IMG/VR virus record: IMGVR_UViG_3300030330_001255
Source: an uncultured virus (IMG/VR IMGVR_UViG_3300030330_001255)
Taxonomy: Duplodnaviria > Heunggongvirae > Uroviricota > Caudoviricetes
Strand: one strand, 5' to 3'
DNA length: 64,000 bases
Shown here: positions 742-64,000 of the stretch, one piece after another
Layout: every line of letters begins with the position of its first letter
How positions within the stretch are numbered: position 1 is the first letter of the stretch
Notes under the pieces: generated by a model
What the model was told of the DNA's origin: nothing
What the model saw: only the letters and a program-made list of their open reading frames with translations
The model's database searches: none
Position numbers and translations under genes: made by a program

Positions 742-781
742 ACCTTAATTTTAAAAACTTAATTTTATTCCCAAGGATTCC

Positions 782-810: not shown

Positions 811-815
811 TAACT

Positions 816-886
816 TATCATACAACTAATCAGAACATAGACTAGTATGATAGACGACCTAGAGACTATGTTCGTTAATTACTAGG
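816..886 (+). ncRNA. Candidate pseudoknotted leader RNA
   Basis: TATCATAC(816-823)/GTATGATA(845-852) and GAACATAG(833-840)/CTATGTTC(866-873) are interleaved helices; conserved in copy 2. Confidence 0.5.
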
Positions 887-897
887 AGTAAAATAAA

Positions 898-1176: not shown

Positions 1177-1223
1177 TTAATTTATTGTGGGGCTATAGCC
1201 CCACATAATCTAAGGAGAAAATT

Positions 1224-1804: not shown

Positions 1805-1812
1805 GAGGTTAA

Positions 1813-3245: not shown

Positions 3246-3934
3246 TGGCATACACTTTAACAAATTTACAAGATGATATTAGAAATTATACAGAGGTAGA
3301 TAGTTCTGTATTATCCACTGCTATCTTAAATACAATAATAAAAAATGCTGAAAACAGAATATATAGACAGGTTGATTCTGATGATAATAGATTTTACGCT
3401 ACATCAAATCTAGCTGTTGGTAATAGGTATGTAACGATACCATCCGATCTAAGAATTATAAGATACGTTCAATTAAAGAATACAAACGTAACACCTAATA
3501 CACAAACATTTCTAGAAAAAAGAGATACTAGTTTTATGTCAGAATATTATGATACACCAAACACTGCTAATGGATTACCTAAGTATTATGCTAATTGGGA
3601 TGCTAACTTTTGGGTTGTTGCTCCCACACCTGATGCTACTTATGAGATAACTTTAGCATATGTAAAGCAACCCACCAGCTTAACAGACGCTTCTGTCAGT
3701 GGATCTGGAACATATATTTCTAATAAATATCAAGATTTACTTTTATATGCTGCTTTGGTAGAAGCATATGGATACTTGAAAGGCCCCGTAGATATGTTAC
3801 AATACTACGAACAGTCTTTTCAAAGAGCAATACAATCGTACGCGGTTGAACAACAAGGCCGTAGACGCAGAGACGAATATAATGATGGTGTTATTCGTAC
3901 TCCACTTAAATCAGAATCACCATCTAAATACTAA
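3245..3934 (+). CDS. Adaptor / tail tubular protein A-like
   Basis: GLPKYYA...APTPD...DLLLYAALVEA motifs; homolog at 61654. Confidence 0.65.
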   Translation: MAYTLTNLQDDIRNYTEVDSSVLSTAILNTIIKNAENRIYRQVDSDDNRFYATSNLAVGNRYVTIPSDLRIIRYVQLKNTNVTPNTQTFLEKRDTSFMSEYYDTPNTANGLPKYYANWDANFWVVAPTPDATYEITLAYVKQPTSLTDASVSGSGTYISNKYQDLLLYAALVEAYGYLKGPVDMLQYYEQSFQRAIQSYAVEQQGRRRRDEYNDGVIRTPLKSESPSKY

Positions 3935-3946
3935 GGAGATAGTAAT

Positions 3947-4390
3947 ATGGCAAATATAGTACCTGATTCATTCAAAACTGGATTGTTAAAAGGAACGTTT
4001 AATTTTGATACTTCTGGTAATGGAGGAAACTCTTTTAAACTTGCCTTGTATACTAGCATAGCAGGATATAACACAGCTTCGACAGTTTTTTCAGCAACTA
4101 ACCAAGTTAGTTCAAGCGGAACAAACTATACAGCAGGTGGAAATACTTTAACAAACAGTGGAGTAGCGATATCATCAAATATTGCTTTTATAGACTTCGC
4201 TGATTTGACTTTTTCATCTGTTACTTTAACAGCTGCTGGTGCCGCGATATACAAGACAACTGGTGGTGGAAATGAACTGGTTCTAGTATTAGACTTTGGT
4301 GGAAATAAAACGGCAACTAATGGTGATTTCGTCATTCAGTTTCCTACAAACAATTCATCAAGTGCGATTATTAGAATTGGTGACGCATAA
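3947..4390 (+). CDS. Tail structural protein
   Basis: FKLALYT...YTAGG...LDFGG motifs of a phage tail/fibre-attachment family. Confidence 0.65.
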   Translation: MANIVPDSFKTGLLKGTFNFDTSGNGGNSFKLALYTSIAGYNTASTVFSATNQVSSSGTNYTAGGNTLTNSGVAISSNIAFIDFADLTFSSVTLTAAGAAIYKTTGGGNELVLVLDFGGNKTATNGDFVIQFPTNNSSSAIIRIGDA

Positions 4391-4407
4391 TATTAAGGAT
4401 TTTATAA

Positions 4408-4863
4408 ATGGCTTTTGTATTAAATGACAGAGTTAAGCAAACTAGTACAACTACTGGTACAGGAACATTTAGTTTAACAGGAACCGAAGTAGGTTTCGAA
4501 ACTTTTGTTGCTGGTATTGGTACAACCAATAATACATTTTACGCTATATCTAACGATGGAACCGCTGAATTTGAAGTCGGTATTGGAACTGTAACAGATG
4601 CAACACCTGATACACTTTCTAGAGATACCGTTATCTCTTCTTCTAATTCAGACAACAAAGTAGATTTTAGTGCTGGAACTAAAACTGTATTTTGTACTTA
4701 TCCTGCAAAACGTGCTCCGTCTGCAGCTATGACAGCTACAACTTACATTAATACACACGCTTCAACTATTTCTGATGTTCAAACAATGGACTCAGGAGTT
4801 TTAGCAGGCCCAGTAACAGTATCTAATACTGTTACGGTAACAGGAACATTGGTAATTTTATAA
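4408..4863 (+). CDS. Tail fibre-associated protein
   Basis: DRVKQTSTTTGTG...VFCTYPA N-terminal domain. Confidence 0.65.
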   Translation: MAFVLNDRVKQTSTTTGTGTFSLTGTEVGFETFVAGIGTTNNTFYAISNDGTAEFEVGIGTVTDATPDTLSRDTVISSSNSDNKVDFSAGTKTVFCTYPAKRAPSAAMTATTYINTHASTISDVQTMDSGVLAGPVTVSNTVTVTGTLVIL

Positions 4864-5279
4864 TGAGCCAAATAGAAGTAGATAAAGTAATACCTCAATC
4901 AGGAACTAATTTACAAATTGGTGAAGCTGGTGATACTATTAATTTAACTACTGCAACTGTAAACTTACCAACAGGTGTTGGTGGAACTTCTTGGCAAGCA
5001 GTAAAAACTGCTAATTTTACTGCGGTAGCAGGTGAAGGATATTTTGTAAATACAACAAGTGGAGTTATTACAGCAACCTTACCATCATCTGCAACAATTG
5101 GAAATGAGGTTTCAATAATAGATTACGCTGGAACAGCAGATACAAATAATATAACAATAGGTAGAAATGGACATAACATTCAAGGTGCAGCATCAGATTT
5201 AGTAGTATCAACTGAAAGGGCAGGTTTTACTTTGGTTTATGTTGATTCAACACAAGGATGGTTACTAAAGGACAAATAA
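4863..5279 (+). CDS. Short tail-fibre-like protein
   Basis: GEGYFVNT...TLP...LVYVDSTQGW domain shared with the C-terminus of 14260-14979. Confidence 0.65.
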   Translation: MSQIEVDKVIPQSGTNLQIGEAGDTINLTTATVNLPTGVGGTSWQAVKTANFTAVAGEGYFVNTTSGVITATLPSSATIGNEVSIIDYAGTADTNNITIGRNGHNIQGAASDLVVSTERAGFTLVYVDSTQGWLLKDK

Positions 5280-17634: not shown

Positions 17635-18852
17635 ATGGCAATCAATAGAACAATGATGAAAAGACAACTATACGAGGACGGAGGTCTGGGGTTAGTGCCT
17701 AGAGAACAATATGGCCTTGGTAGTTTTCTTAAAAAAACTTTTAGAAAAGTTACAAAACCTTTTGTAAAGGTAGCACAAAAATTAGTACCAAAAGAAATAG
17801 CTAAACCTTTAATGGTAGCTGCTCCTTTCCTAGGCCCATATGCTCCACTAATCTATGCAGCAGGTTCAGCAAAAGCAACAGGTAGAATAGATCCAGTAAA
17901 GTTAGCACTAACAGCTGCACCTTATGTTAAGTTTGAGGGTATCAAACCAGTTGGTTATGGTGGATCTAAGTATGGAATATTTGGTGGAGACGAAATTGGA
18001 TTTGGTAAAAAAGTTGGATTACCTGAAGGTACAGGTGTAGGTGAAGATTTAAGAGGAACTAGTATAGCAGATAGAGTAGATAAAGGTGCTAGCAAACAAT
18101 TTGAGGCATTAGCTAAAGGTGAGGGTAAAACAGCAAGTATAAAAGAAGTTGGAGCAGAAATATTAACTGATCCTAAAACCATAGTATCAGGTGGTGTATC
18201 ACTTGCTACATACATAGATGAACAGAAAAAACTAAAAGAAGATCAAGGCTTAGAATTTACAGAAGAAGATTACAATAATGCAGTTAATGAATTTTATTCT
18301 AAATATTCAGAATCATTTGAAAGAGGCTTTGGTCAAACAGGTGGCATAGCACAGACCCGTAAAAATTTTGCTTTAGGTGGAGATGACGATGAGTTACCCG
18401 AAGATCCAACAAAACCTGTTAATCCTTTTCAACCTAAACCCATAGGCCCTGTATTACCTGATAAGATGGCAGAGAGTCGTCCATCACAATTATTCAAACT
18501 TCTAGAAGAGGCAGAAGCTGCAGGAGATGATGATAAAGTCAAAGAGATTAAATCAGATCTATTTAGAGAGTTTGGAATAAAACTAGCAAAAGGTGGTAGA
18601 GTAAAACTAGAAGACGGCACTACTATTACACCTATGAAAAAACCAGAACAGACAGAAGAGAATACTATAATCCCTATGGATACATTTGAATCAAAAATCA
18701 ATAATGCTGTTATGGGTATCAGAGGTGGTATAGATAAAGATCTCATGGTTGAAATGTTGGAAAATCAAAGAGTAGAATTAGGTATACCTGAAGATGATGC
18801 CAAGATGGCAGTTCAAAATTTTATGCTTCGTTTTCGAAGAGGGATTAAGTAA
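17635..18852 (+). CDS. Putative internal virion / ejection protein
   Basis: Amphipathic YGLGSFLKKTFRKV segment; xxGG motifs; position. Confidence 0.55.
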   Translation: MAINRTMMKRQLYEDGGLGLVPREQYGLGSFLKKTFRKVTKPFVKVAQKLVPKEIAKPLMVAAPFLGPYAPLIYAAGSAKATGRIDPVKLALTAAPYVKFEGIKPVGYGGSKYGIFGGDEIGFGKKVGLPEGTGVGEDLRGTSIADRVDKGASKQFEALAKGEGKTASIKEVGAEILTDPKTIVSGGVSLATYIDEQKKLKEDQGLEFTEEDYNNAVNEFYSKYSESFERGFGQTGGIAQTRKNFALGGDDDELPEDPTKPVNPFQPKPIGPVLPDKMAESRPSQLFKLLEEAEAAGDDDKVKEIKSDLFREFGIKLAKGGRVKLEDGTTITPMKKPEQTEENTIIPMDTFESKINNAVMGIRGGIDKDLMVEMLENQRVELGIPEDDAKMAVQNFMLRFRRGIK

Positions 18853-27402: not shown

Positions 27403-28853
27403 TCTCTTAAATCTTCACCCATTATCTCAGTGGCTATATTAACCTTATTTCTTAATGACTCGACAATCTTCTCATCCACTGTATCATCAGCCATCATATC
27501 TATATAAGTAACTTTATTTTTTTGACCTATCCTGTGGGCTCTATCTTCTGATTGTAATCTCTTTTCTAAATCATAACTATTTGAATAATATATAACAGCT
27601 TTTGCCTCTGTTAGCGTAATACCATAACCACCTGTCTGCGGATTACCTATAAAAAATCTAACTTTAGAATTAGGGTCTTGAAATTTTTTAATGTTCTCTT
27701 GTCTTTGGTCAGCGTTTATTGCACCATAATAGGTAACAATAGCCTCTGTTCCATATTTTAGATTACCCTCTTCGTCTTTCATATGAGAGATGGCTTTTAT
27801 AATACTCTTAATATCATGGACATAGTTAGCCCAAATGATTACCTTACCATCGACCTCTTCGATTAGATTAAGTAAGTCTTTAATTCTATTATTTTTTAAC
27901 TCTATTACCTCATCATTATCGGTTTTCATATGACCACAGGTTATCTGATGTAGTCGCATTAACTGTGTTAATACTGTGCTCGTTGACATAACCTTAGAGT
28001 TTAGTTCTGCGAGGGCCGTGGTTCGCATTTGATCGTAAAGCTGTCTCTGTTCTTTGGTTAATTCTACTCTATGTTTTATAAATAATTTTTTAGGTAAGTC
28101 CAAGCAATCCTCCTTTAATACTCTAAATGAAAATGGTTTAATGTTTTTTTCTAGTTCTTCTATTCTTTGATAACCAGCAACTAGCTGGATTGATCTACCA
28201 TTAATTAACACTCTACGCATAATGGCGTATCTATTTCTAAAAGAAACGTAAGAAAAATAGTTAAGTAAAAATGGATCTAAGAAATAACACTGACTAAATA
28301 AATCCAAAGGTGATTTAGTTACTGGTGATCCAGTAAGTATTCTACGATAAATAGCACCATCTGCTATCTTAATTATATTTTTTGTTCTAGCTGCACCTGG
28401 ATTTTTTATTGTAGTGCTTTCGTCTACGGCTAACATAGCTTTATGTGTTCTTAAAAATTTCTGTGCAGCATCTACACCTTTTTGTGTAGACAATGCTTCA
28501 ACATTCATAATAAATATATGAAGATCATCATCAACTTTTAATAAACTTTCAAATTGTTTTTTAAATTTTTTTGTATGATTAGCTTGCCACATTACCATTT
28601 TATGTTTAACGTGATCAGGCATATGTGTAGGTATCTCTTCAGAAAACCAATTTTTATAAACACCTTTTGGTGCTATAATTAGAGCACCATCTATCTTTCC
28701 GTTGTCATATAATATGGCTATGTTATCTATTAATACTTTAGATTTACCTGTACCCATCTCCATAAACAATGCAAAATTTTTTTCAAATGCACTTCTTTCA
28801 AGCGCAATTGATTGATGTTGAAACGGTTTCGTTTTAAATTTATATTTAAACAT
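27393..28853 (-). CDS. SNF2-like SF2 helicase
   Basis: MEMGTGKS, DEST, LTGSP and QSEDRAHRIGQ motifs. Confidence 0.9.
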   Translation of the reverse strand: MFKYKFKTKPFQHQSIALERSAFEKNFALFMEMGTGKSKVLIDNIAILYDNGKIDGALIIAPKGVYKNWFSEEIPTHMPDHVKHKMVMWQANHTKKFKKQFESLLKVDDDLHIFIMNVEALSTQKGVDAAQKFLRTHKAMLAVDESTTIKNPGAARTKNIIKIADGAIYRRILTGSPVTKSPLDLFSQCYFLDPFLLNYFSYVSFRNRYAIMRRVLINGRSIQLVAGYQRIEELEKNIKPFSFRVLKEDCLDLPKKLFIKHRVELTKEQRQLYDQMRTTALAELNSKVMSTSTVLTQLMRLHQITCGHMKTDNDEVIELKNNRIKDLLNLIEEVDGKVIIWANYVHDIKSIIKAISHMKDEEGNLKYGTEAIVTYYGAINADQRQENIKKFQDPNSKVRFFIGNPQTGGYGITLTEAKAVIYYSNSYDLEKRLQSEDRAHRIGQKNKVTYIDMMADDTVDEKIVESLRNKVNIATEIMGEDLREWI

Positions 28854-28867
28854 TTTTACTTTCTTAT

Positions 28868-28902
28868 CTTGACATATAATTTATGATGTATTATATGTCA
28901 AG
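28868..28902. promoter_or_regulatory. Palindromic divergent promoter pair
   Basis: CTTGACATATAAT-N9-ATTATATGTCAAG between divergent replication genes. Confidence 0.7.
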
Positions 28903-28907
28903 TAGAA

Positions 28908-29303
28908 ATGACAGAAAGTATAGCAAAAGCATTAAACGATAAATTTAATAACAAATCTATTGTTTATGTTATTCAAGCAGTACCTGGTACACGTGATGGT
29001 GCACCAAAAATAAATATTGTTGGAGCACAAGAATTTGGCGAAATTAAGGTATTGTTAGATGAGGACAAACAAATAATGTTTAGTCCTGCACCTATGATCA
29101 GAAAAATGAAAAGGATGTTAAAAGACTTTTCAGATAATGATTACTTGTTATTAACAGGTGATCCTGCTATGATCGGTGTTGCGTGTTCTGTTGTTTCTGA
29201 AGTAAACAATGGTAAATATAAACTTTTGAAGTGGGACAGGCAAGAAAGACAATACTATCCTATTTCAATTAATATACATGAAAGAGGTAATACTGATGAG
29301 TAA
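28908..29303 (+). CDS. Hypothetical protein
   Basis: DYLLLTGDP and LLKWDRQ motifs; first gene of the replication operon. Confidence 0.7.
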   Translation: MTESIAKALNDKFNNKSIVYVIQAVPGTRDGAPKINIVGAQEFGEIKVLLDEDKQIMFSPAPMIRKMKRMLKDFSDNDYLLLTGDPAMIGVACSVVSEVNNGKYKLLKWDRQERQYYPISINIHERGNTDE

Positions 29304-43513: not shown

Positions 43514-44077
43514 CTAATTAGTTTTGTCCTTTGGTCTCGCTCCCTGCATGATCAATGAACCGCTATCTCCTACCGCTTGTTTCAATGCTTTGCCTATTTT
43601 ACCAAGCATATCAACCTCTGACATAGAAGGCTTATTATTTTTATAGTCTTTGTGATCTACAACTCTCTCAAAGTTTGACCAATAGACTAGGCCAATATCA
43701 TAAGCATTATTACCTAACATACTCTTAGGAATATAATTGCTCTCCGATACGTGCCACTCTCCACCTTTATAGATGTAGATGTATTCAATCATAGTCGCAC
43801 CGCTATTCTCATACATCAAACAATATTCGTTGTTGTATGTTGCGGTATCATTGTGATTATCTCTGTCCCAATCTCTTTTATAGAAACTACACTCGTTTGT
43901 AGTTTTGCCAAGATATGAACAATCTCCATAATCAAATAACTTGATTGCTTTGTCATATGTTGCGTAATGCTCGACAAGTAATTTGCCGTTGCCCTCAACA
44001 TATCCATCTGAATGAACATAAATAGATTTAACATCTCTATTTGGTAGTTCAATCGCCACTAATGATCTAGTCGACAT
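43514..44077 (-). CDS. Hypothetical early protein (YxHxDGY family)
   Basis: MSTRS...IYVHSDGY; AAGGAG RBS; TTGACT promoter at ~44140. Confidence 0.75.
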   Translation of the reverse strand: MSTRSLVAIELPNRDVKSIYVHSDGYVEGNGKLLVEHYATYDKAIKLFDYGDCSYLGKTTNECSFYKRDWDRDNHNDTATYNNEYCLMYENSGATMIEYIYIYKGGEWHVSESNYIPKSMLGNNAYDIGLVYWSNFERVVDHKDYKNNKPSMSEVDMLGKIGKALKQAVGDSGSLIMQGARPKDKTN

Positions 44078-44186: not shown

Positions 44187-44552
44187 ATGAAAAAAGAGAA
44201 GGATTTGATCAAAAAATTAAAGTCATCTACTCCTCAAATAGTGTGGGATAGGATAGAGAATTTGGCGGTTTCAGGCGTTCCTGATCTGTTGGGATACAAC
44301 AAAAATAATAAATTTTTTACCATTGAAACTAAATTAGCAAAAGTTAATTCAGTGACGTTTAGACCTCATCAAATTGCGTGGCATGTACGTCATCCTGTCA
44401 ATGCTTTCATCCTGCTTTTTTCACAGAGACACCGAACCGCGAAACTTTTTAAAAGTACATCGATCCACGATCTGCGGAAGCTAGGACACAAGGCCACCGA
44501 CCACGTTGCGCTGTCATTTGACGAAATAAACAAATATCTATTGTCGTTGTAA
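44187..44552 (+). CDS. VRR-NUC / Holliday junction resolvase-like nuclease
   Basis: E...RIE...GVPDL...IETK...HQIAW motifs. Confidence 0.75.
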   Translation: MKKEKDLIKKLKSSTPQIVWDRIENLAVSGVPDLLGYNKNNKFFTIETKLAKVNSVTFRPHQIAWHVRHPVNAFILLFSQRHRTAKLFKSTSIHDLRKLGHKATDHVALSFDEINKYLLSL

Positions 44553-44590
44553 TGGGGTGGGGAGCCCGTCTACCGACCCCCACCCCCCAT
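44552..44590. repeat. GC-rich element copy 1
   Basis: GGGTGGGG-AGCCCG-...-CCCCACCC. Confidence 0.85.
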
Positions 44591-44605
44591 GTTTCACGTG
44601 AAACA
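44590..44605. promoter_or_regulatory. parS: parS site (perfect consensus)
   Basis: TGTTTCACGTGAAACA. Confidence 0.8.
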
Positions 44606-44655
44606 ACGAACCACTGCTCGACCCAAAATGAACATATACAACTAAAAAGTGATTG

Positions 44656-44671
44656 ACACCATATCTTGTGT
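44656..44671. promoter_or_regulatory. NrdR-box-like palindrome
   Basis: ACACCATATCTTGTGT versus consensus acaCwAtATaTwGtgt. Confidence 0.6.
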
Positions 44672-44704
44672 GCGACAATCTGCGCATTTACATGGCCGTG
44701 GCTA

Positions 44705-44743
44705 GGTGTAGGGAGGGGAGCCCGTGCCCCACCCCCACCCAAT
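44705..44743. repeat. GC-rich element copy 2
   Basis: GGTGTAGGGAGGGGAGCCCGTGCCCCACCCCCACCCAAT. Confidence 0.85.
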
Positions 44744-44789
44744 ATATATCCCCCCTATTATCATCAGCCTTGCCTAAATAGGGGAGAAA

Positions 44790-45077
44790 GACCAGCTACA
44801 ATAGGTCTAATCTAGAATACTACAACGTTGTAGCTGATCTAAGATCAGTGGTGAGAACTCGCATTTCTGCATCATCTATACTCACTTTGCGGATCACTGA
44901 CCTAAGATCAGTAGACGTCAGTTTAAAACATCTTTCAATTCACCAGAACAATCTGGCCGCCTCTTCTACTGATCAGGGAAGAACTGACATCGATCTCTAA
45001 AGCGCATCGCAATTACTTGCATACGTCAGTCCTTCCCAGATCAGGGGGCGATTGTTCTCCTTTCATCGCCCCACTGA
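44790..45077 (-). ncRNA. Candidate five-domain tandem hairpin RNA
   Basis: Five adjacent stems joined at GATC/CTGA junctions; G-U pairs and GNRA loops favour the minus strand. Confidence 0.6.
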
Positions 45078-45082
45078 ATAGT

Positions 45083-45466
45083 TTAAGCACTCTTCTTAGT
45101 GTACCTCTTTAGCAAATCGTTAAGGTATCCTTGATCCTTTATCGTATCCTTGTTTCCGCCATAACCTACATCGTAGATTGTAACGTGAAGATCTTTGTCG
45201 TTTGACCGACAACGAACCTCGTAACGATAATCAAGGTCGCCATGCCTGTTGTAGTGTGAAGTAAGTCTTATGTCTCCCTCACCATTTTTGTTGGCTGCCA
45301 CGAAACTAGCGGCAAACTCATCTGCCTCGTATCGTGGTAACTTCCAAGCTCTGTCCTTTGCGAAAGAAATGTACTGAAGAGCGTTCTCAGGATAGCCGTC
45401 CCAATGTTTGTAAACGTGGTACGTTTCTCTACCATCTGAGAAGCTATATACTGCTCTTGTTCCCAT
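45083..45466 (-). CDS. Hypothetical early protein (YxHxDGYP family)
   Basis: MGTRA...VYKHWDGYP; related to 43514-44077. Confidence 0.75.
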   Translation of the reverse strand: MGTRAVYSFSDGRETYHVYKHWDGYPENALQYISFAKDRAWKLPRYEADEFAASFVAANKNGEGDIRLTSHYNRHGDLDYRYEVRCRSNDKDLHVTIYDVGYGGNKDTIKDQGYLNDLLKRYTKKSA

Positions 45467-45578
45467 AACTTTTCAACCTTTTTTCATTTTCCTTTCTTAC
45501 CGCATAAAACCATACAAATATGGCAACAATATGACGAACATAAAAAAATATTTTTTATTTTTTTCTTGACATACTGCA

Positions 45579-45623
45579 GGGTGTAGAGTTGGGGAGGGGA
45601 GCCCGTGGCCTACCCCCACCCAT
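45579..45623. repeat. GC-rich element copy 3
   Basis: GGGAGGGGAGCCCGTGGCCTACCCCCACCCAT. Confidence 0.85.
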
Positions 45624-45635
45624 ATAAAAAAATTT

Positions 45636-45672
45636 AAAAAAAATACTCACAACCAAAGGTTGTGAGTATTTT
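45636..45672 (-). terminator. Intrinsic terminator
   Basis: AAAATACTCACAACC-AAA-GGTTGTGAGTATTTT with an A-run on the plus strand. Confidence 0.75.
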
Positions 45673-45702
45673 GGCGGTGCCTATTTGTAGGTACTTGTTA
45701 AT

Positions 45703-46946: not shown

Positions 46947-46991
46947 GGTGCGTGAGGAGGGTGGGGAAGCCCGCGTCCCGCCCCCACCCAC
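46947..46991. repeat. GC-rich element copy 4
   Basis: GGGTGGGGAAGCCCGCGTCCCGCCCCCACCCA. Confidence 0.85.
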
Positions 46992-47065: not shown

Positions 47066-47431
47066 TTATAGTGCTGATTTTTCTTGGGCTTTTCTTTCAA
47101 TAATCCCAAGTTTACGATTCATCCATCGTTTTCTAGTAAGTGAAGTTATCCAACCTCTGTTTGTAACTTCAATTTTTAGTCCAAGATTTCTTTCGAATAA
47201 TTGAACTAACTCACCGTTACTTGGGTTATTTTTAAGAAATGGCACTTGATAGATAAGATCTAAAAATCTAATTCTGAATAATATTTCAGGCATAGTCTTT
47301 CTAGAAATTTCATCTACACAAAGTGCCATTAGTACATGACCCACTGAATCAGCTTCTGCTCTTGCAGAAACTTTCTTAAACTCTACTTCGTTGTAGTGTT
47401 TAAGACCTGTATAGTGTATATATAACGCCAT
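47066..47431 (-). CDS. Hypothetical early protein
   Basis: GAAAGGA RBS before MALYIHY; has its own promoter. Confidence 0.7.
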   Translation of the reverse strand: MALYIHYTGLKHYNEVEFKKVSARAEADSVGHVLMALCVDEISRKTMPEILFRIRFLDLIYQVPFLKNNPSNGELVQLFERNLGLKIEVTNRGWITSLTRKRWMNRKLGIIERKAQEKSAL

Positions 47432-47450
47432 AGTTTTTTTCCTTTCTGTC

Positions 47451-47490
47451 TGGTACAATACCACACACAAATCTACTTTCAACAACTATT
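47451..47490 (-). promoter_or_regulatory. Putative early promoter with TGGTA-N3-TACCA palindrome
   Basis: TTGAAA-16-TATTGT; duplicated at 48370-48410. Confidence 0.65.
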
Positions 47491-47500
47491 TTAAGAAATG

Positions 47501-47530
47501 TGTCCATTTTGGGTTTGTCCATTTTGGGTT
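47501..47530. repeat. Tandem 15-bp repeat TGTCCATTTTGGGTT x2
   Basis: Direct repeat; related inverted copies at 44620 and 48419. Confidence 0.8.
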
Positions 47531-47544
47531 TATTAGCGAGACTA

Positions 47545-47584
47545 GGTGTGAGGGCGGGGAAGCCCGCCCCCTAACCCCACCAAT
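47545..47584. repeat. GC-rich element copy 5
   Basis: GGTGTGAGGGCGGGGAAGCCCGCCCCCTAACCCCACCAAT. Confidence 0.85.
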
Positions 47585-47596
47585 ATTTTTTTTATT

Positions 47597-47629
47597 AAAA
47601 AAATGGAGGCGACTTTTACATCGCCTCCA
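47597..47629 (-). terminator. Intrinsic terminator
   Basis: TGGAGGCGA...TCGCCTCCA with an A-run. Confidence 0.8.
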
Positions 47630-47656
47630 CTGGTCGGACAAGACCCGCGCGTCTTG

Positions 47657-48091
47657 CTACATCTTCGGAAAGTGTTCTTTCCAAAGTTGGTCTGCTCTCT
47701 TATGGATCGCTGGCCAATCAGGTTTGTTATTCCAGGTTCTATAGTTAGGTTGAACCGCTTTAACAAACTGGCTGATGATCCATTCTTTAGTAACAGGTCG
47801 AGTCATTAAATTATTAATGATCTTTTCCCATTTTTCTAAAGTTTTGTATCTAGGATATAATCTTACAATTCCTAGACCAGTAAATGGATCTACAAGTTCT
47901 ACCTTTTTGTAACCCGTTGGGATCAAAATTAATTCGCTTGTCCCGCCAGTTATTCTGGTAATCTTGTAACCAGATCCTCTTAACATCTTATTAAGCTGCC
48001 ATATACACAACCCGTGATCTGTCACACGTCTTTCGTGATATCTCGGTCTTGTCTTATACGGACGGTCTTCTTTGTCTGTTAAGTTTACCAT
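47657..48091 (-). CDS. Hypothetical early protein
   Basis: GAAAGG RBS before MVNLTDK. Confidence 0.65.
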   Translation of the reverse strand: MVNLTDKEDRPYKTRPRYHERRVTDHGLCIWQLNKMLRGSGYKITRITGGTSELILIPTGYKKVELVDPFTGLGIVRLYPRYKTLEKWEKIINNLMTRPVTKEWIISQFVKAVQPNYRTWNNKPDWPAIHKRADQLWKEHFPKM

Positions 48092-48346: not shown

Positions 48347-48369
48347 ATATATTTCCTCCTTTCTTAATA

Positions 48370-48410
48370 TGGTACAATACCACAGCTAAATCTATATTCA
48401 ACAACTATTT
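48370..48410 (-). promoter_or_regulatory. Putative early promoter with TGGTA-N3-TACCA palindrome
   Basis: TTGAAT-16-TATTGT. Confidence 0.65.
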
Positions 48411-48434
48411 ACATAAACGACCCATTATGGACAC

Positions 48435-48479: not shown

Positions 48480-48520
48480 GGGTGGAGGGCGGGGCAAGCA
48501 CGCCCCCTAACCCCACCAAT
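48480..48520. repeat. GC-rich element copy 6
   Basis: GGGTGGAGGGCGGGGCAAGCACGCCCCCTAACCCCACCAAT. Confidence 0.85.
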
Positions 48521-57800: not shown

Positions 57801-58706
57801 ATGGCTATATCACGATCACAGCTAGTTAAAGAACTAGAGCCAGGTTTAAATGCTTTATTCGGCCTGGAATACAAAAGATACGAGAATCAACACGCTGATA
57901 TTTACGACATTGAAAATTCAGACAGAGCGTTCGAAGAAGAAGTAATGCTTTCTGGATTTGCTAATGCGCAAGTCAAAGCAGAAGGTCAAGGTGTATCATT
58001 CGATGATGCTCAAGAGACTTTCACTTCTCGTTATAACCACGAAACCATAGCACTTGGATTCGCAATCACTGAAGAAGCGATTGAGGATAACTTGTATGAC
58101 AGACTTGCGTCTAGATATACAAAGGCTTTAGCAAGATCTATGGCAAACACTAAGCAGGTAAAAGCTGCCGCTGTGTTGAACAACGCATTTAATGCTGCAA
58201 ACGCAGGTGGAGATGGTAAGGAGTTATGCGCTACTGATCACCCAACTGTTGCAGGTACATTTTCAAATGAGTTGGCAACTTCAGCAGATCTTAATGAAAC
58301 ATCATTGGAACAGGCGTTAATTGATATTAATGCAATGACCGATGAAAGAGGAATGAAGATCGCGGCTAGAGGAGTGAAAATGATCATTCCAAGTGAACTT
58401 CAGTTTACTGCAGAAAGACTTATGAAGTCTGCAAATAGAACTGGAACTGCTGACAATGATATCAATGCAATTGGTTCAATGGGTATGATCCCACAAGGTT
58501 ATGTTATTAATAACTTTTTAACTGACCCAGATGCGTTTTTCATTAAAACAGACATACCAAATGGTATGAAAATGTTTGTCAGAGCACCAATCAAAACTGC
58601 GATGGAAGGTGATTTCGACACTGGTAATGTTAGATACAAAGCTAGAGAGAGATATTCTTTTGGATTCTCAGACCCTAGAGGTATTTTTGGCTCACCAGGT
58701 GCGTAA
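57801..58706 (+). CDS. Major capsid protein
   Basis: MAISRSQLVKELEPGLNALFG, ITEEAIEDNLY; strong RBS and downstream terminator. Confidence 0.9.
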   Translation: MAISRSQLVKELEPGLNALFGLEYKRYENQHADIYDIENSDRAFEEEVMLSGFANAQVKAEGQGVSFDDAQETFTSRYNHETIALGFAITEEAIEDNLYDRLASRYTKALARSMANTKQVKAAAVLNNAFNAANAGGDGKELCATDHPTVAGTFSNELATSADLNETSLEQALIDINAMTDERGMKIAARGVKMIIPSELQFTAERLMKSANRTGTADNDINAIGSMGMIPQGYVINNFLTDPDAFFIKTDIPNGMKMFVRAPIKTAMEGDFDTGNVRYKARERYSFGFSDPRGIFGSPGA

Positions 58707-58725
58707 TATCTGATAACCATATATT

Positions 58726-58755
58726 TAGGGGGCGAGCAATCGCCCCCTTTTTTTG
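58726..58755 (+). terminator. Intrinsic terminator after MCP (copy 2)
   Basis: GGGGGCGA-GCAA-TCGCCCCC followed by a T-run. Confidence 0.9.
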
Positions 58756-58765
58756 TCTTAAAATT

Positions 58766-59038
58766 ATGGAAAAAAAGTTTAAAGTCAAAATATTTGCCTA
58801 CGGCTATTTTATGCAATTTAATGTATTTTGCAGAGATTCAGCAATTAGTATAGAAAATGCTATTATTGACAAAATCCGAAAAAATGATATAAAAATTGAG
58901 TATAACACATTTTACGATAATAAATCGTTACGTGTAACATACGAGGAGGTATATCATGGTGGCAATGCTTCAAACGAAGATAGACAACCTTTACCAAAAA
59001 AAGAAATCTCTAGATCAGAAATGGGACGAAGAACATAA
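58766..59038 (+). CDS. Homolog of 369-638
   Basis: High amino-acid identity. Confidence 0.65.
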   Translation: MEKKFKVKIFAYGYFMQFNVFCRDSAISIENAIIDKIRKNDIKIEYNTFYDNKSLRVTYEEVYHGGNASNEDRQPLPKKEISRSEMGRRT

Positions 59039-59141
59039 TAAAGAAAATAAATACACTTTAAATATGGTCAAAATTGATAGAGAGATTCAAATTTTAATTG
59101 GAAAAATTAAATCTGCAGAAACAGAACTAGCAAAATTTTAG
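58956..59141 (+). CDS. Homolog of 559-741
   Basis: High amino-acid identity. Confidence 0.7.
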   Translation: MVAMLQTKIDNLYQKKKSLDQKWDEEHNKENKYTLNMVKIDREIQILIGKIKSAETELAKF

Positions 59142-59215
59142 TTCTTAACTTTAAAAATTTAATTTTATTCCCAAGGATTTCTTGCGCTTTTCAAAAAATT
59201 TATATATATTTAACT

Positions 59216-59286
59216 TATCATACAACTAACCAGAACATAGACTAGTATGATAGACGACCTAGAGACTATGTTCGTTAATTACTAGG
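59216..59286 (+). ncRNA. Candidate pseudoknotted leader RNA (copy 2)
   Basis: One substitution relative to 816-886. Confidence 0.5.
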
Positions 59287-59296
59287 AGTATATAAA

Positions 59297-59572
59297 ATGG
59301 CAAATACTACATTCAAAGGCCCAGTAACATCGATCAACGGATTTATTGGTGGCCCAAATAAAAATGCAGGTGACACGCAACAAGGTGGAAAAAACACTTA
59401 TTCAATTGGTGCGAACTCAACTGAAGTAACAGATGGTACAAATACATTAACTGCAGCAGGAAACGAAGGCGTTTTAATTTATGTGGATAATGGTGCTGCT
59501 GGTGCAAAAGTATATGCTTTTTCAGATGGAACAAACTGGAAAAGAGTAGATACGCTTGCTAATATTTCATAA
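59297..59572 (+). CDS. Homolog of 898-1176
   Basis: Amino-acid similarity. Confidence 0.7.
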   Translation: MANTTFKGPVTSINGFIGGPNKNAGDTQQGGKNTYSIGANSTEVTDGTNTLTAAGNEGVLIYVDNGAAGAKVYAFSDGTNWKRVDTLANIS

Positions 59573-59620
59573 TTTTTATAGGAGCCTTTCGAGGCTCCTT
59601 AAAATTTAAAGGAGAAAAAA

Positions 59621-59935
59621 ATGGCAGGTGGTGGATCGTTTTCAAGTGATCAAAAGTTTACAACTTTAACAGCAGATGGTAATTTTAAAACTATCACTGG
59701 TGGTGGAACTAATTTAGGCCCTTGTAGAGTTACATACATAACGGCACATGGAGTGGCAAACTCTGTTGTAAAATTACATGATGGAACTTCAAATGCAGGA
59801 TCATTAGAATTTCAAGCTAAATTTAGCACGGAAGGATTAGATGTTTTTGTACCTGGTTCAGGAATTAGATTCAAAGAAGGAGTCTTTTTAGATTTAACTA
59901 ACACAGATTCCGTAACAATAGGATACACAGGATAA
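59621..59935 (+). CDS. Homolog of 1224-1535
   Basis: Amino-acid similarity. Confidence 0.7.
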   Translation: MAGGGSFSSDQKFTTLTADGNFKTITGGGTNLGPCRVTYITAHGVANSVVKLHDGTSNAGSLEFQAKFSTEGLDVFVPGSGIRFKEGVFLDLTNTDSVTIGYTG

Positions 59936-60204
59936 TGAAAAGTGATGTAAAAGCAGTAAGAAAAACATCAACAGGAAATGTTTTTGGTGGAAGAACAAGA
60001 CTTAGAGGAATTATTTTATCTTCTAATGGAGGTGCAGGATCTGTAACTTTACAAGATGGTAATTCAGTAACTCAGTTTCAAGCTGATGTTCCAAACGGAG
60101 ATGTTTTTTCATATAACTTAGCAGAGGATGGAATTGTATTTGAAGGTGGCATGACTATATCGGCTATGTCAAATGCAATTGTTACTGTTATAATAGATAA
60201 ATAG
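59935..60204 (+). CDS. Homolog of 1535-1804
   Basis: Amino-acid similarity. Confidence 0.7.
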   Translation: MKSDVKAVRKTSTGNVFGGRTRLRGIILSSNGGAGSVTLQDGNSVTQFQADVPNGDVFSYNLAEDGIVFEGGMTISAMSNAIVTVIIDK

Positions 60205-60212
60205 GAGGTTAA

Positions 60213-61160
60213 ATGGCAAACACTACCTCTGGTACAAATGTTTTTGAAAAAGGTTTTTCTATTGCTGACATAGTTGAAGAATCCTATGAAAGAATAGGAA
60301 TGCAAGGTGTTTCTGGTTATCAATTAAAAAGTGCCAGACGTTCTTTAAATATCATGTTTCAAGAGTGGGGTAATAGAGGGCTTCACTACTGGGAAGTTAA
60401 TAATACATCACTAACTTTAGCAACAAATCAAAAAGAATATGAAATATTTAGATCTTCATCTGAAGGTGATTCCAATGGTGTTACTACAACCATAACATCA
60501 AACATTGCAAATAATGTTACAACCATACCAGTTGCTTCAGTAAACAATATGCCAACATCTGGTAAAATAAAAATTAATAATGAAATAATTTCATACACAG
60601 GAATATCTTCTTTAAATTTAACAGGTGCAACAAGAGGAGTGGATGGAACTACAGCGCAAGCACATTTAAGTTCAGGCCCAGTAACTAATTTTGTTAATGG
60701 TGCCGATGATATTTTAGAAGCTGTTTATAGAAATGTGTCATCTGGATCAGATGATATAGATGTATCTTTAAATAAAATTTCTAGATCAGAGTATCAAGCG
60801 TTATCTAATAAAAGTTCTACAGGACAACCAACACAATATTATGTTCAAAGATTTATAGATAGAATTAAAATAACTTTATACCTAACACCAGGAACTTCTG
60901 AAAATGGAAAATTTTTAAATTTTTATTATGTAAAAAGAATACAAGATGCAGGTGGTTATACAAACGATGCAGACGTGCCTTATAGATTTGTCCCTTGTAT
61001 GATTGCAGGTTTATCTTACTACCTATCACAAAAATTTGCACCAGAGAGAATACAAAACATGAAATTATTATACGAAGATGAATTAAATAGAGCGCTATCA
61101 GAAGATGGATCTTCTACTAGTTCTTACATAACACCTAAAATTTATTACCCAGGAGCATAA
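60213..61160 (+). CDS. Adaptor-like protein, homolog of 1813-2751
   Basis: Amino-acid similarity. Confidence 0.7.
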   Translation: MANTTSGTNVFEKGFSIADIVEESYERIGMQGVSGYQLKSARRSLNIMFQEWGNRGLHYWEVNNTSLTLATNQKEYEIFRSSSEGDSNGVTTTITSNIANNVTTIPVASVNNMPTSGKIKINNEIISYTGISSLNLTGATRGVDGTTAQAHLSSGPVTNFVNGADDILEAVYRNVSSGSDDIDVSLNKISRSEYQALSNKSSTGQPTQYYVQRFIDRIKITLYLTPGTSENGKFLNFYYVKRIQDAGGYTNDADVPYRFVPCMIAGLSYYLSQKFAPERIQNMKLLYEDELNRALSEDGSSTSSYITPKIYYPGA

Positions 61161-61654
61161 TGGCAAATCAATCATCAGGAAAATACTCAAAAGCCATATC
61201 AGATAGATCAGGTATGGAGTTTCCATATAAAGAAATGGTTAAAGAATGGAACGGTTCCTTTGTGCATATATCTGAGTTTGAAGCTAAACACCCACAATTA
61301 GAAATAAAACCACATGCCTCTGACCCTCAAGGTTTAAGAGATGCTAGACCAGATAGAACAGAAACTGCAGTTCCAAATTTATTACCGTTGAATCCATTTA
61401 AAATAACAAATGGCAGCACAACTATTGTTGTTAGTGAACCAAATCATGGTAGATCTACAGGTAATACAGTTAGATTTAGAAACACAACTAATGTAGGAAA
61501 TGTTACATCTGCAACGATTACTCAAGCTGCAGGGTATACAATTACAAAAGTTAATGATAATACTTATAATTTTACAACTGGAACAACAGCTTCTAGTACG
61601 TTACAAGGAGGAGGTGGACTTGCTTCAGCAGGCCCAGTTAATATTACAGCATAA
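61160..61654 (+). CDS. Homolog of 2751-3245
   Basis: Amino-acid similarity. Confidence 0.7.
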   Translation: MANQSSGKYSKAISDRSGMEFPYKEMVKEWNGSFVHISEFEAKHPQLEIKPHASDPQGLRDARPDRTETAVPNLLPLNPFKITNGSTTIVVSEPNHGRSTGNTVRFRNTTNVGNVTSATITQAAGYTITKVNDNTYNFTTGTTASSTLQGGGGLASAGPVNITA

Positions 61655-62325
61655 TGGCATACACTTTAACAAACCTACAAGATGATATTAGAAATTATAC
61701 AGAAGTTGATAGTTCTGTATTGTCTACTACCATTTTAACTACAATTATTAAAAACGCTGAAAACAGAATTTATAGAGAAGTAGACTCTGATGATAATAGA
61801 TTTTATGCAACATCTAATTTAGCTGTTGGTAATAGATATGTAACAATACCCTCTGATCTAAGAATAATTAGATATGTGCAATTAAAAGATTCAAATAATA
61901 ATCAAGTATTTTTAGAAAAAAGAGATACTAGTTTTATGACAGAATATTATAATACTCCATCTACAGCTGATGGTTTACCTAAATATTATGCTAATTGGGA
62001 TGCTAATTTTTGGGTTGTAGCACCAACTCCTGATCAAACTTATCAGATAACATTGGCTTATGTAAAGCAACCAGAGAGTTTAACAACTAAAACATCTGGA
62101 ACATATGTTTCAAATAAATACCAAGATTTGCTTTTATATGCTGCCCTAGTAGAAGCGTATGGGTACTTGAAAGGCCCCTCAGATATGTTACAATACTACG
62201 AACAGTCTTATCAAAGAGCAATACAATCGTACGCGGTTGAGCAACAAGGCCGTAGACGCCGAGACGAATATAATGATGGTGTTATTCGTACTCCACTTAA
62301 ATCAGAATCACCGTCTAAATATTAA
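61654..62325 (+). CDS. Adaptor / tubular A-like protein, homolog of 3245-3934
   Basis: Amino-acid similarity. Confidence 0.7.
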   Translation: MAYTLTNLQDDIRNYTEVDSSVLSTTILTTIIKNAENRIYREVDSDDNRFYATSNLAVGNRYVTIPSDLRIIRYVQLKDSNNNQVFLEKRDTSFMTEYYNTPSTADGLPKYYANWDANFWVVAPTPDQTYQITLAYVKQPESLTTKTSGTYVSNKYQDLLLYAALVEAYGYLKGPSDMLQYYEQSYQRAIQSYAVEQQGRRRRDEYNDGVIRTPLKSESPSKY

Positions 62326-62336
62326 GGAGATATAAC

Positions 62337-62789
62337 ATGGCAAACATAGTACCTAATTCTTTCAAGTCTGGATTGTTAAAAGGAACTTTTAACTTCGACA
62401 CTTCAGGTAATGGAGGAAATGAGTTTAAGTGTGCCTTATATACAGCTATCACAGGATACAGTATAACTTCTACTACTTTTCAAGCTGGAGTTGGTAATAA
62501 TGAAGTAAACCCTTCAGGAACAGGTTATACTGCTGGTGGACTAGCTCTAACAAATACTGGAGTTGATGGAACAACCGCAACGTCTTTTACAGATTTTGGT
62601 GATTTAACTTTTCCATCAGTTTCATTAACTGCTAGAGGAGCTGCAATATATAAGTCAACTGGTGGCGGAAATGAATTAGTTCTAGTGTTAGACTTTGGTG
62701 GAAATAAAACGGCAACGAATGGTGATTTCGTCATTCAGTTTCCTTCAAATACTACATCAAGTGCTATTATTAGAATTGGCGACGCGTAA
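62337..62789 (+). CDS. Homolog of 3947-4390
   Basis: Amino-acid similarity. Confidence 0.7.
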   Translation: MANIVPNSFKSGLLKGTFNFDTSGNGGNEFKCALYTAITGYSITSTTFQAGVGNNEVNPSGTGYTAGGLALTNTGVDGTTATSFTDFGDLTFPSVSLTARGAAIYKSTGGGNELVLVLDFGGNKTATNGDFVIQFPSNTTSSAIIRIGDA

Positions 62790-62806
62790 TATTAAGGATT
62801 AAATAA

Positions 62807-63262
62807 ATGGCTTTTGTATTAAATGACAGAGTTAAACAGACAAGTACATCTACTGGAACTGCTACTATTAGTTTAACAGGAACAGAAGTTGGTTTCGAAA
62901 CTTTTGTTGCAGGTATTGGTGACACTAATAATACTTTCTATTGTATTTCACATGATGGTACAGCTGATTTTGAAGTCGGTATTGGTACAGTAACTGATTC
63001 AGCTACTGATACACTTTCTAGAGATACCGTTATCTCCTCTTCAAATTCAGATAACAAAGTGAATTTTCAAGCAGGAACTAAAACTGTGTTTTGTACTTAT
63101 CCTGCAAAGAGAGCTCCGTCTGCAGCTATGACAGCCACAACTTACGTAACAACACACTCTTCTACTATTTCTGATGTTCAAACAATGGACTCAGGAGTTT
63201 TAGCGGGCCCTGTAACCGTATCAGGTACAGTAACAGTAACAGGTAATTTAGTAATTATATAA
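62807..63262 (+). CDS. Homolog of 4408-4863
   Basis: Amino-acid similarity. Confidence 0.7.
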   Translation: MAFVLNDRVKQTSTSTGTATISLTGTEVGFETFVAGIGDTNNTFYCISHDGTADFEVGIGTVTDSATDTLSRDTVISSSNSDNKVNFQAGTKTVFCTYPAKRAPSAAMTATTYVTTHSSTISDVQTMDSGVLAGPVTVSGTVTVTGNLVII

Positions 63263-64000
63263 TGAGTACAATAGAAGTAGATAAGATACAGCCACAATCA
63301 GGAACTAATTTACAAATTGGTGAAGCTGGCGATAGTTTAACATTTCAAAATAGTGTTATTCCAAACTCTGCTTTAGCAAACGGTCAAATTACAATTAATG
63401 GTGTATCTGTAAATTTAGGTGGATCAGCTACGATACCAACTGAAACACAACCTGTTATATCTAGTTTTACACCTACAGTTATTGATGCAGACGTTGGTGG
63501 TACTATAACTATTACAGGACAAAATTTTGCATCTATACCAAAAGTAGAATTACAAAGAGCAAACGGTGCATTTCAATCTGCAACATCGGTTACATTTACA
63601 AGTGCAACAACAATAAGTTTTACAACTGGCACAGCTGGTTTAACAAATGGACAAAACGTTAGAATTTTAGTTACAAACCCAGATGGTAATGCAGCTAGAA
63701 GTTCATCAGATTTAACAGTATCTGATGGCCCTGCATTTACAACGACATCGCTTCCTGACGGTTCAGCAGGCACATCTTATTCACAAAATATAGATGTAAC
63801 TGGAGACAGTGCTGTAACTATTTCACAATCAGTTGTATCTGGATCTTTACCGCCAGGAATAACTATTGGAACAACATCAAATCCATCAGGATCAACATAC
63901 AGAGCAGTAATATCAGGGACTTTACCAAGTCCTGCTAGTGAAACAACATATAGTTTTACTGTTAGAGCAACAGACGCTCAAGGACAAACAACTGACCAAG
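63262..64000 (+). CDS. Ig-domain tail fibre protein, truncated by the window end
   Basis: MSTIEVDKIQPQSGTNLQIGEAGD start resembles 4863; body resembles 6554-7345 (GQITING, NPDGNA, FTVRATDA). Confidence 0.7.
   Translation, partial: MSTIEVDKIQPQSGTNLQIGEAGDSLTFQNSVIPNSALANGQITINGVSVNLGGSATIPTETQPVISSFTPTVIDADVGGTITITGQNFASIPKVELQRANGAFQSATSVTFTSATTISFTTGTAGLTNGQNVRILVTNPDGNAARSSSDLTVSDGPAFTTTSLPDGSAGTSYSQNIDVTGDSAVTISQSVVSGSLPPGITIGTTSNPSGSTYRAVISGTLPSPASETTYSFTVRATDAQGQTTDQ

Follow-up and report, generated by a model that had tools for sequence, protein, structure and literature searches.

What does a chain of abutting hairpins do between two convergent genes of a marine phage, and does it act as RNA or as DNA? 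The question is raised by a 64,000-nucleotide stretch of DNA from an uncultured virus (IMG/VR IMGVR_UViG_3300030330_001255; the whole stretch is referred to as the window), in which an initial annotation described five hairpin domains at positions 44,790 to 45,077, with GATC junctions and unique interiors, lying 3' of a gene and matching no recognised family. The window holds the genome of a marine podophage, whose large terminase shares 70.2% identity with the Pelagibacter phage HTVC027P protein and 59% with the HTVC023P one; helicases, a family A DNA polymerase and a portal and adaptor of SU10 type are also encoded. Judged by sequence, the source appears to be an HTVC027P-like pelagiphage, kin of the very abundant SAR11 phages. 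Of the marine virus groups known, the HTVC023P-type pelagiphages are reported to be the most abundant, and the control of their early genes is little known; an infection RNA-seq time course of HTVC027P has been published, and that transcriptome paper describes its early genes as all of unknown function (PMC12753301). The stretch 58397-63340 of the window repeats positions 1-4942 at 84% identity, which puts the genome at ~58.4 kb and means that the window either wraps around or joins two strains. A Pfam scan of 73 window open-reading frames (E cut-offs of 0.01 for 11 of them and 0.001 for the other 62) found no RNA polymerase, integrase, reverse transcriptase, recombinase or transposase.

Genomic setting and folding strand of the array

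The array lies within a 530-nt gap that separates the convergent genes p121 (plus strand) and p127 (minus strand), and it begins 10 nt past the p127 stop codon, directly 3' of that gene as had been proposed (Table 1). p127 is a member of the sole long block of minus-strand genes, at about 41.5-48.3 kb. Its 261 homologues are every one annotated as hypothetical, it matched no Pfam or PHROG family, and its structure model (pLDDT 91) is without a clear fold match, with no Foldseek match at E up to 0.001 and a best VIA Z of 4.3; to p187 it shows a weak N-terminal likeness only (E 0.008). On the other side of the gap, p121 has Hjc, VRR_NUC and RecU as its nearest named clusters, a lead only, with no sequence match in the PDB, and is syntenic with the arrays of related phages. 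No open-reading frame above 50 aa overlaps the array, as first noted, and a coding reading of a 97-aa minus-strand frame at 44449-44742 was ruled out by indels of 1-4 nt among relatives. Positions 44500-45200 had no nucleotide match among 50,697 phage records, and the closest record (G001) is a 26-kb fragment from which the array region is absent.

Table 1. Features of the array and its flanks, in window coordinates, from p127 towards p121
Feature	Position	Strand	Basis
p127, upstream gene, 127 aa, unknown function	45083..45466	-	ORF list
H5, GC-rich 8-bp hairpin just after the stop codon	45045-45052 / 45065-45072	-	sequence and fold
H4, 20-bp carrier stem	44969-44988 / 45025-45044	-	repeat finder and fold, 90% complementary
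H4 insert, 36 nt, with a GUAA-capped hairpin inside	44989-45024	-	fold
H3, perfect 10-bp GAUCAG-type stem with a 49-nt interior	44906-44915 / 44965-44974	-	repeat finder and fold, 100%
H2, 17-bp stem, multi-tier interior ending in a GAAA tetraloop	44834-44850 / 44895-44911	-	repeat finder and fold, 88%
H1, 13-bp stem, interior exposes UUCUAGA	44789-44801 / 44828-44840	-	repeat finder, 92%
H0, sixth abutting hairpin	44749-44759 / 44777-44787	-	repeat finder
G-rich element with four G-runs, 3' of the array	44711..44740	-	sequence
Conserved sigma-70-like promoter, pointing at the array 3' end	44653..44680	+	by eye
p121, convergent gene, candidate small PD-(D/E)XK-type nuclease	44187..44552	+	likeness to named clusters

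Each of the five stems is present where it had been placed, H2 and H4 proving longer (17 and 20 bp) than first stated, and the four junction strings read exactly as written, neighbouring stems abutting via palindromic CUGAUCAG-type junctions. The repeat finder, which is strand-neutral, recovers four of these stems together with H0, and H5 was defined from sequence and fold; the initial annotation had missed H0, as it had the shuffling of cassettes and the wider family. The H4 stem contains a U-U mismatch and a G-U pair. H0 is part of an element spanning 44741..44787, in which a UCUCCCC.../...GGGGAGA base is kept, the interior is variable and an alternating A/U tract follows. GATC is ~6-fold denser in the array (7 in 288 nt) than in the rest of the window (241 in 64 kb); the idea of a restriction-site decoy was dropped, since GATC is not avoided window-wide (241 observed vs. 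263 expected).

Folded as the minus strand, a 306-nt stretch over the array reaches -111.7 kcal/mol (z -5.71, equalled by none of 100 shuffles), and folded as the plus strand it reaches -96.2 kcal/mol (z -5.35). Among 638 GC-corrected 300-nt minus-strand segments, 44801-45100 is the most structured (z -3.89), and on the plus strand it lies outside the top eight. Both GNRA-capped minus-strand hairpins proposed in the initial annotation were recovered, the GAAA-capped one in the minimum-energy fold and the GUAA-capped one in the centroid. In all ten array versions, that of the window and those of nine relatives, the minus strand has the lower folding energy, by 13-30 kcal/mol; these are not ten independent trials, because modules are common to several of them. 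Summed over the ten, the minus folds hold 108 G-U pairs and 4 A-C 1x1 mismatches, the plus folds 51 and 27. That stem mismatches become G-U pairs on the minus strand is thus borne out in the variants and, by counts given below, in the wider family. This G-U asymmetry marks the minus strand, which is also the coding sense of p127, as the RNA-sense strand. The array is a structured RNA in the 3' UTR or an intercistronic spacer of the minus-strand gene block, and it is probably co-transcribed with p127.

In the other gaps of the minus-strand block, a stop codon is followed by a hairpin with a U-run, an A/U-rich tract and a G-rich element with four G-runs; an element of this kind comes after the terminator in four other intergenic regions. 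In the gap behind p127, the terminator slot ahead of the G-rich element is filled by the array and H0 with its UAUAUAUU. A terminator scan called no minus-strand terminator within 44741-45077, H5 included, and the tail of H0 consists of UAUAUAUU only; H0 is probably a weak terminator. At related loci, hairpin and U-run terminators were seen by eye 3' of the array on the RNA-sense strand, and in two cases, locus L236 and HTVC027P, a TTGACA-N17-TATATA promoter (by eye) lies ahead of the element and a gene follows it. Phage 023Pt_psg01 has the order gene stop, H5-like hairpin, carrier hairpin and G-rich element, and the cargo of its carrier hairpin is also seen in L155.

In RNA libraries of two studies there are contigs that span p127 coding sequence, H5 and an arm of H4 (X17 record 7, X18 record 11), and variant arrays occur in others (X17 records 5 and 6, X18 record 10, X15 record 1); being contigs, these data hold no strand, end or level information and may derive from DNA. 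p127 is exactly covered at depths of 43-58 in one RNA run. The exact contigs of X15 and X16 end at 45063-45069, leaving most of the array uncovered in both runs, and p121 and 45482-45700 are uncovered in four RNA runs; such gaps prove nothing, as contigs break at strain variation and the filter may drop records.

Stems and interiors in close relatives

Loci of relatives were found via the flanking proteins and also via the junction pattern; a metagenome scan with a 17-nt junction pattern gave 119 stretches, mostly chance matches from unrelated habitats, and BLAST confirmed only ~8 of them as true relatives. The metagenome locus L169, at 99.8% identity, belongs to the same phage. In the relatives the first ~200 nt of the gap are 83-95% identical, stem bases and junctions are kept and the hairpin interiors are replaced, so that the initial description of conserved junctions with distinct interiors extends to other genomes. 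The 20-bp H4 stem is nearly invariant in all ten versions, and its constancy persists while p127 drops to about 63% identity: the U-U mismatch is kept in eight of the ten and is A-U or U-A in the other two, one G-U position is kept in eight, and the other changes are switches from G-C or A-U to G-U which preserve pairing. This stem comparison was tabulated by script, since the whole-array alignment is too mosaic for column-wise pair counts. At the H4 tip the insert lengths across the ten versions are 0, 0, 3, 30, 36, 36, 52, 58, 58 and 58 nt, and the 36-nt insert of the window is also present in one relative (L025). H5 keeps its stem, with the U-tract absent behind it; its loop, the first on the minus strand, does read GAAAGGAGAACA and is SD-like as claimed, but is not conserved, occurring in three versions among the ten variants.

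The hairpin interiors assort independently, in mosaic fashion. For example, the 58-nt insert is seen alongside three different neighbouring hairpins, and the hairpin adjoining it in L138 pairs with another insert in L018, whilst the H1 interior is housed in an H3-type stem in L023. Similarly, five other viral loci hold an exact 21-nt core of the H2 interior between different flanks, six hold an exact 20-nt core of the H1 interior within other carrier stems (one of the six shares a contig with L023), and an RNA-library contig (X17 record 6) holds 44846-44900 exactly between differing flanks. The interiors are therefore unique in the sense that none has a second copy in the window (best E 0.26), but not in the wider sense, the same interiors recurring, recombined, across relatives. 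As the genome has no recombinase, homologous exchange at the conserved stems would be the simplest cause. No comparable array lies downstream of the more distant p127 relatives, and p121 relatives at 45-55% identity mostly have no GATCAG strings within 600 nt downstream.

The carrier family and a pseudoknotted cargo

At the loci that hold the H1 and H2 cores, the array stems take the form CTGATCCCAG(G/A)TCC ... GGA(C/T)CAGGGATCAG, and these CTGATCCCAG-type stems are identical to the window stems in their outer six pairs and have a similar single mismatch. A scan for carrier arms, using regex definitions of our own and giving counts that are lower bounds, found at least 119 viral loci, with the partner arm within 160 nt in 76 of the 119 listed; in a control scan of bacterial and archaeal genomes the partner arm was present at none of the 120 loci listed. 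On this comparison the hairpins are a viral feature, and single arm matches can be chance. The pooled set comprises at least 129 distinct hairpins from at least 102 viral loci, and among the 129 listed the RNA-sense strand is the more stable one in 114 and the less stable one in 14, with one tie, and there are 308 G-U pairs vs. 140 on the other strand and 10 A-C mismatches vs. 53. Family carriers have a helix of 17-18 bp or more with a U-U mismatch, and the core helix with its mismatch is seen in both orientations relative to the loop, which is in keeping with a helix, not a strand, being recognised. The inserts (129 hairpins listed) are 20-129 nt long, with a median of 40, and fall into at least 114 sequence clusters, 100 of them singletons; UUCUAG occurs in 13 of the 129 listed, against 1.5 in shuffles. 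The cultured phage HTVC027P has one carrier hairpin (18050-18099 of MN698241.1) which, together with the existing infection RNA-seq, makes the element directly testable; HTVC023P has a single arm match, inside its terminase gene, and DSL-LC04 has no carrier arm.

In eight of the family loci listed the array lies just upstream of a same-strand p187 homologue, and a p121 homologue lies within 1.5 kb (about 1 kb) in 24 of the 130 family loci listed. These gene neighbourhoods fit a conserved gene order in which p121 would be an insertion in the clade of the window.

A 58-nt insert, located at the tip of H4 in three close relatives, recurs in 29 further viral loci, where it is mostly on the other carrier type; the window itself does not hold it. 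This cargo is a conserved folded RNA, an H-type pseudoknot with covariation support. Covariation in homologues, a check named in the initial annotation, was thus found for both carrier and cargo, in 22 distinct sequences over the carrier and two interleaved helices (26 pairs, 557 cells): 97.7% of cells are paired and 6 of the 26 pairs change on both sides. Examples of double changes are C-G 12 / G-C 10 and A-U to G-C, one from each cargo helix, and, in the carrier, A-U 16 / G-C 6. None of 500 column shuffles matches the observed pairing, double changes or covariation score, and sliding the partners by 1-3 columns lowers pairing to 20-40%; the structure was derived by eye from the same, related sequences, and the shuffle counts are to be read as supportive, not as probabilities. 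The loops of the pseudoknot cargo are invariant.

Known systems and competing readings

The initial annotation recognised no family here, and none reaches threshold in Rfam. Rfam 15 gave no match in the 64-kb window at gathering thresholds, and relaxing E to 10 over 44300-45400 gave four hits, which score 13-16 bits where the thresholds are 42-83. In the nine close relatives an E cut-off of 1 gave 11 hits, none at threshold, the sole ones on their arrays being to mir-641 (about 28 bits vs. 100), and eight wider-family loci gave three hits, none at threshold. Rfam lacks any conserved, strand-specific and covariation-supported RNA architecture with swappable inserts like this array. ARAGORN found no tRNA or tmRNA gene in the window, and Tandem Repeats Finder gave no rows for 44400-45300; a CRISPR array or type III antitoxin RNA was excluded, the direct repeats being limited to junction strings of 10-16 nt. 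Neither this architecture nor the carrier-arm strings were found in the literature searched, and the main texts of the pelagiphage genome and transcriptome papers searched are silent on such elements.

The RNase III hairpins of the T7 early genes are intercistronic processing sites that leave protective 3' hairpins on the mRNAs. Like the array, they are long, imperfect and mismatched hairpins of a podophage, placed in leaders or between small, early-type genes, and their recognition as a helix, free of orientation, fits the two carrier orientations seen here. H4 (20 bp with its U-U mismatch) and H2 (17 bp) have the shape of such sites, a helix of ~17-22 bp with a mismatch in a leader or intercistronic position. 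Unlike the T7 sites, the array hairpins, putative cleavage sites, abut with palindromic junctions, their carrier sequence is strictly conserved across many phages, and their tips hold large, diverse inserts, some conserved and pseudoknotted.

Integron attC sites are imperfect palindromes in which the base and some unpaired positions are conserved, folding is strand-specific and the tip varies, and they share with the array the arrayed, shuffled palindromes on a conserved base and the folding of one strand. However, the bases of the array hairpins differ from the attC core, no open-reading-frame cassettes lie between them, and the evidence points to RNA; an attC identity was rejected, as there is no integrase or recombinase among the 73 scanned open-reading frames, and a preprint on HTVC023P-type phages likewise reports no integrase. 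Among RNA elements, the array has tandem, duplicated and recombining modules, some of them pseudoknotted, in common with the 3' UTRs of flaviviruses. The latter carry exonuclease-resistant pseudoknots and duplicated stem-loops, but belong to an unrelated virus and host with another nuclease system, and no sequence or model match links the two.

PeSL cassettes of T4-like phages are described as intergenic regulatory hairpin motifs that act as crossover points (PMC4122927). In what that paper sets out, conserved hairpin motifs shuffle the intervening material among related phages, as here, with the difference that PeSL swaps genes and the array swaps non-coding hairpin interiors of 20-130 nt. 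The repeated terminator and G-rich element of the minus-strand block is a closer analogue of PeSL than is the array. REP/BIME elements form arrays of imperfect palindromes transcribed in 3' UTRs, including those of convergent genes, with proposed roles as terminators and mRNA stabilisers and a mosaic make-up like that of the array; in contrast, the array is one locus per genome rather than hundreds, and its hairpins are 45-160 nt with cargo, not 20-40. REP/BIME identity was rejected: no second copy of the array occurs in the window and HTVC027P has one hairpin, and no RAYT (Y1 HUH) transposase is present among the 73 scanned open-reading frames. A CCCWG-type carrier arm elsewhere in the window gave four one-mismatch hits vs. 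4.5 expected. By analogy, the array appears to work most like the intercistronic RNase III hairpins of phages and to evolve like PeSL crossover cassettes.

The reading we prefer, to which we give a little under even confidence, is that a double-strand-specific endoribonuclease, in the simplest case the host RNase III, acts on the long carriers and by cleaving there would process the operon transcript. The array is a chain of cassettes, each a carrier stem with an independently folding cargo, the carrier being a helix of 10-20 bp on a CUGAUC.../...GAUCAG base that in its longest version has the fixed U-U mismatch and G-U pairs. Host RNase III would probably recognise or cleave the long conserved helices, thereby separating cistrons, setting mRNA 3' ends and leaving protective hairpins in the manner of the T7 early genes, whilst the carrier stems would clamp and display the cargos, each folding alone. 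Conserved stems and junctions would serve as crossover points at which recombination between co-infecting relatives shuffles the cassettes. We infer both the nuclease processing and any function of the cargos. RNase III has no strict sequence requirement, and therefore does not by itself explain the strict conservation of carrier sequence. Nor are the conserved pseudoknotted cargo and the recurring UUCUAG motif needed for a role in processing or stability, and the former asks for a separate function. Should the carriers prove to be processing sites, they would offer a first handle on post-transcriptional control in SAR11 phages.

Reading the array from its cargo inverts these roles, making it a factory of small structured RNAs (aptamers, decoys, sponges or regulators) which the carriers only release or display, the extreme diversity reflecting an arms race or niche adaptation; we regard this as rather doubtful. 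It comes close to the initial annotation, in which an array cut at its junctions would yield unit-length guide, sponge or aptamer RNAs. The many clusters and singletons among the 129 listed hairpins speak for it, as do the exact H1 and H2 cores within different carriers, the enrichment of UUCUAG, the GNRA caps, and the one cargo kept in ~35 loci on two carrier types with invariant loops and covariation in both pseudoknot stems. Against this, most cargos are singletons, and the search for loop targets that had been suggested as a check gave no antisense target within the phage window (best E 0.26). A broader form, tentative but marginally easier to accept, is an uncatalogued carrier and cargo system that may release hypervariable, recombination-shuffled small folded RNAs acting on host or phage factors. 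If such release is real, the array would amount to a viral RNA arsenal and be more than just a 3'-end structure, and if the cargos are functional they would form a large untapped natural set of small structured RNAs on a natural scaffold that makes RNA domains fold independently. The features that suggest cargo function are also what makes it unlikely that the array is a passive, REP/BIME-like 3'-end module, a terminator, insulator and stabiliser separating two convergent transcription units, whose hairpins only stop or slow polymerase and 3' exonucleases around neutral filler: filler should neither keep invariant loops and covarying pseudoknot stems nor recur letter for letter within unrelated carriers. 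The carrier sequence is moreover conserved beyond pairing, mismatch included, and in L236 and HTVC027P the element stands in a gene leader, not at a 3' end. The position between convergent genes in a terminator slot does suit such a module, as does the free insert length, 0 to 58 nt at one apex, and REP325, a hairpin array in an E. coli 3' UTR, is reported to be both terminator and mRNA stabiliser and to raise the expression of convergent gene pairs (bioRxiv 10.64898/2026.03.23.713779).

Two further readings depart from a minus-strand RNA altogether. A DNA-level element, folded as single-stranded DNA or a cruciform for recombination, replication or packaging and perhaps cut by p121, would account for the conserved bases and mismatch beneath variable terminal structures, the shuffled cassettes and the density of GATC, and the nearby p121 homologues with their Hjc / VRR_NUC / RecU likeness offer a lead. 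We nevertheless judge it very improbable, since no recombinase, transposase or reverse transcriptase is among the 73 scanned open-reading frames, covarying pseudoknot stems and GNRA caps point to RNA, and on the folding strand the element has promoters and terminators around it; conserved gene order accounts for the p121 link, p121 being absent beside the arrays upstream of p187 homologues (the eight loci listed), and loops of 20-129 nt would make cruciform extrusion unlikely on general grounds. Hardest of all to credit is that the product of the locus is a plus-strand antisense RNA, made from the promoter at 44653-44680 and pairing with the array and p127 mRNA, as the folding asymmetry favours the minus strand throughout and the promoter is limited to the close clade, not being seen beside the arrays of L236, HTVC027P and 023Pt_psg01. 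Antisense transcription of the array may still matter, given a conserved plus-strand promoter pointing into it. A consensus promoter scan made no call at 44653-44680; by alignment, the -35 and extended -10 elements are conserved around a variable spacer in 11 of 11 relatives, with a CCCAAAATGAAC motif upstream at 44622-44633, and the same promoter architecture and upstream motif drive a minus-strand gene at 47.5 kb.

Repeated G-rich elements and a shared promoter architecture

In the block of minus-strand genes (window ~41.5-48.3 kb) a G-rich element of ~30 nt is repeated between genes in constant orientation, in most cases lying 15-25 nt beyond an intrinsic terminator, and the pattern describing it has five matches in the window against 0.02 expected. 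The element is capable of forming a quadruplex, because it carries four G-runs on the minus strand, and it is also hairpin-capable; a shorter form is present in relatives. Three sites share a promoter layout in which a CCCAAAATGRAC motif (three matches in the window vs. 0.57 expected) is followed by a TTGACA/TTGAAA -35 box and a spacer with TGTG. The single plus-strand copy points into the hairpin array from its 3' side, and an antisense transcript may therefore arise from it.

TTTCACGTGAAA, a perfect 12-bp palindrome kept in 11 of 11 aligned relatives, has the first G-rich element on one side and the promoter motif on the other. In related phages a 7-nt unit, GCTTGNN, which reads CAAGCNN on the RNA-sense strand, is found in runs directly upstream of promoters, a slot which is taken in the window by the G-rich element.

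Positions of the repeated and structured features
Feature	Locus	Position	Strand
G-rich element	window	44559-44581	-
G-rich element	window	44715-44737	-
G-rich element	window	45596-45618	-
G-rich element	window	46964-46986	-
G-rich element	window	47557-47579	-
G-rich element	window	about 48480-48520	-
Promoter architecture	window	44622-44680	+
Promoter architecture	window	47440-47528	-
Promoter architecture	window	about 48360-48420	-
Palindrome	window	44592-44603	
7-nt-unit run	L301	500-620	
7-nt-unit run	L301	1350-1440	
7-nt-unit run	L233		
7-nt-unit run	L236		
7-nt-unit run	L237		
7-nt-unit run	L506 (HTVC027P)	about 1160-1210	
Doubled H0	L016	655-1157	
Structured 300-nt windows	window	28801-29200	+
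Structured 300-nt windows	window	47101-47900	-

Genes around the hairpin array

The array and the p121 insertion are bracketed by p127 (45083-45466) and p187 (43514-44077), which show a weak N-terminal likeness (10/28 identical, E 0.008); from this likeness and their flanking position, the two may be distant paralogs. All 261 homologues of p127 are without annotation, and its predicted model is confident, with no clear fold match. The only plus-strand gene within the minus-strand block, p121 (44187-44552), exhibits by eye a PD-(D/E)XK-like D...E-x-K signature, and the named protein-atlas clusters closest to it, with scores of 0.93-0.94, are those of the resolvases Hjc, VRR_NUC and RecU, a likeness which we treat as a lead only.

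Window extent and further structured regions

Positions 1-4942 and 58397-63340 share 84% identity, the window therefore exceeds one genome length, about 58.4 kb, and either joins two related strains or contains a diverged terminal repeat.

One relative, L016, carries H0 (the array's sixth hairpin) twice, either side of an additional structured insert of ~100 nt, an arrangement that resembles the outcome of a duplication, or of an insertion, at the H0 stem. A GC-corrected scan of the window also found other strongly structured 300-nt windows, with z-scores of -3.9 on the plus strand and -3.0 to -3.5 on the minus strand.
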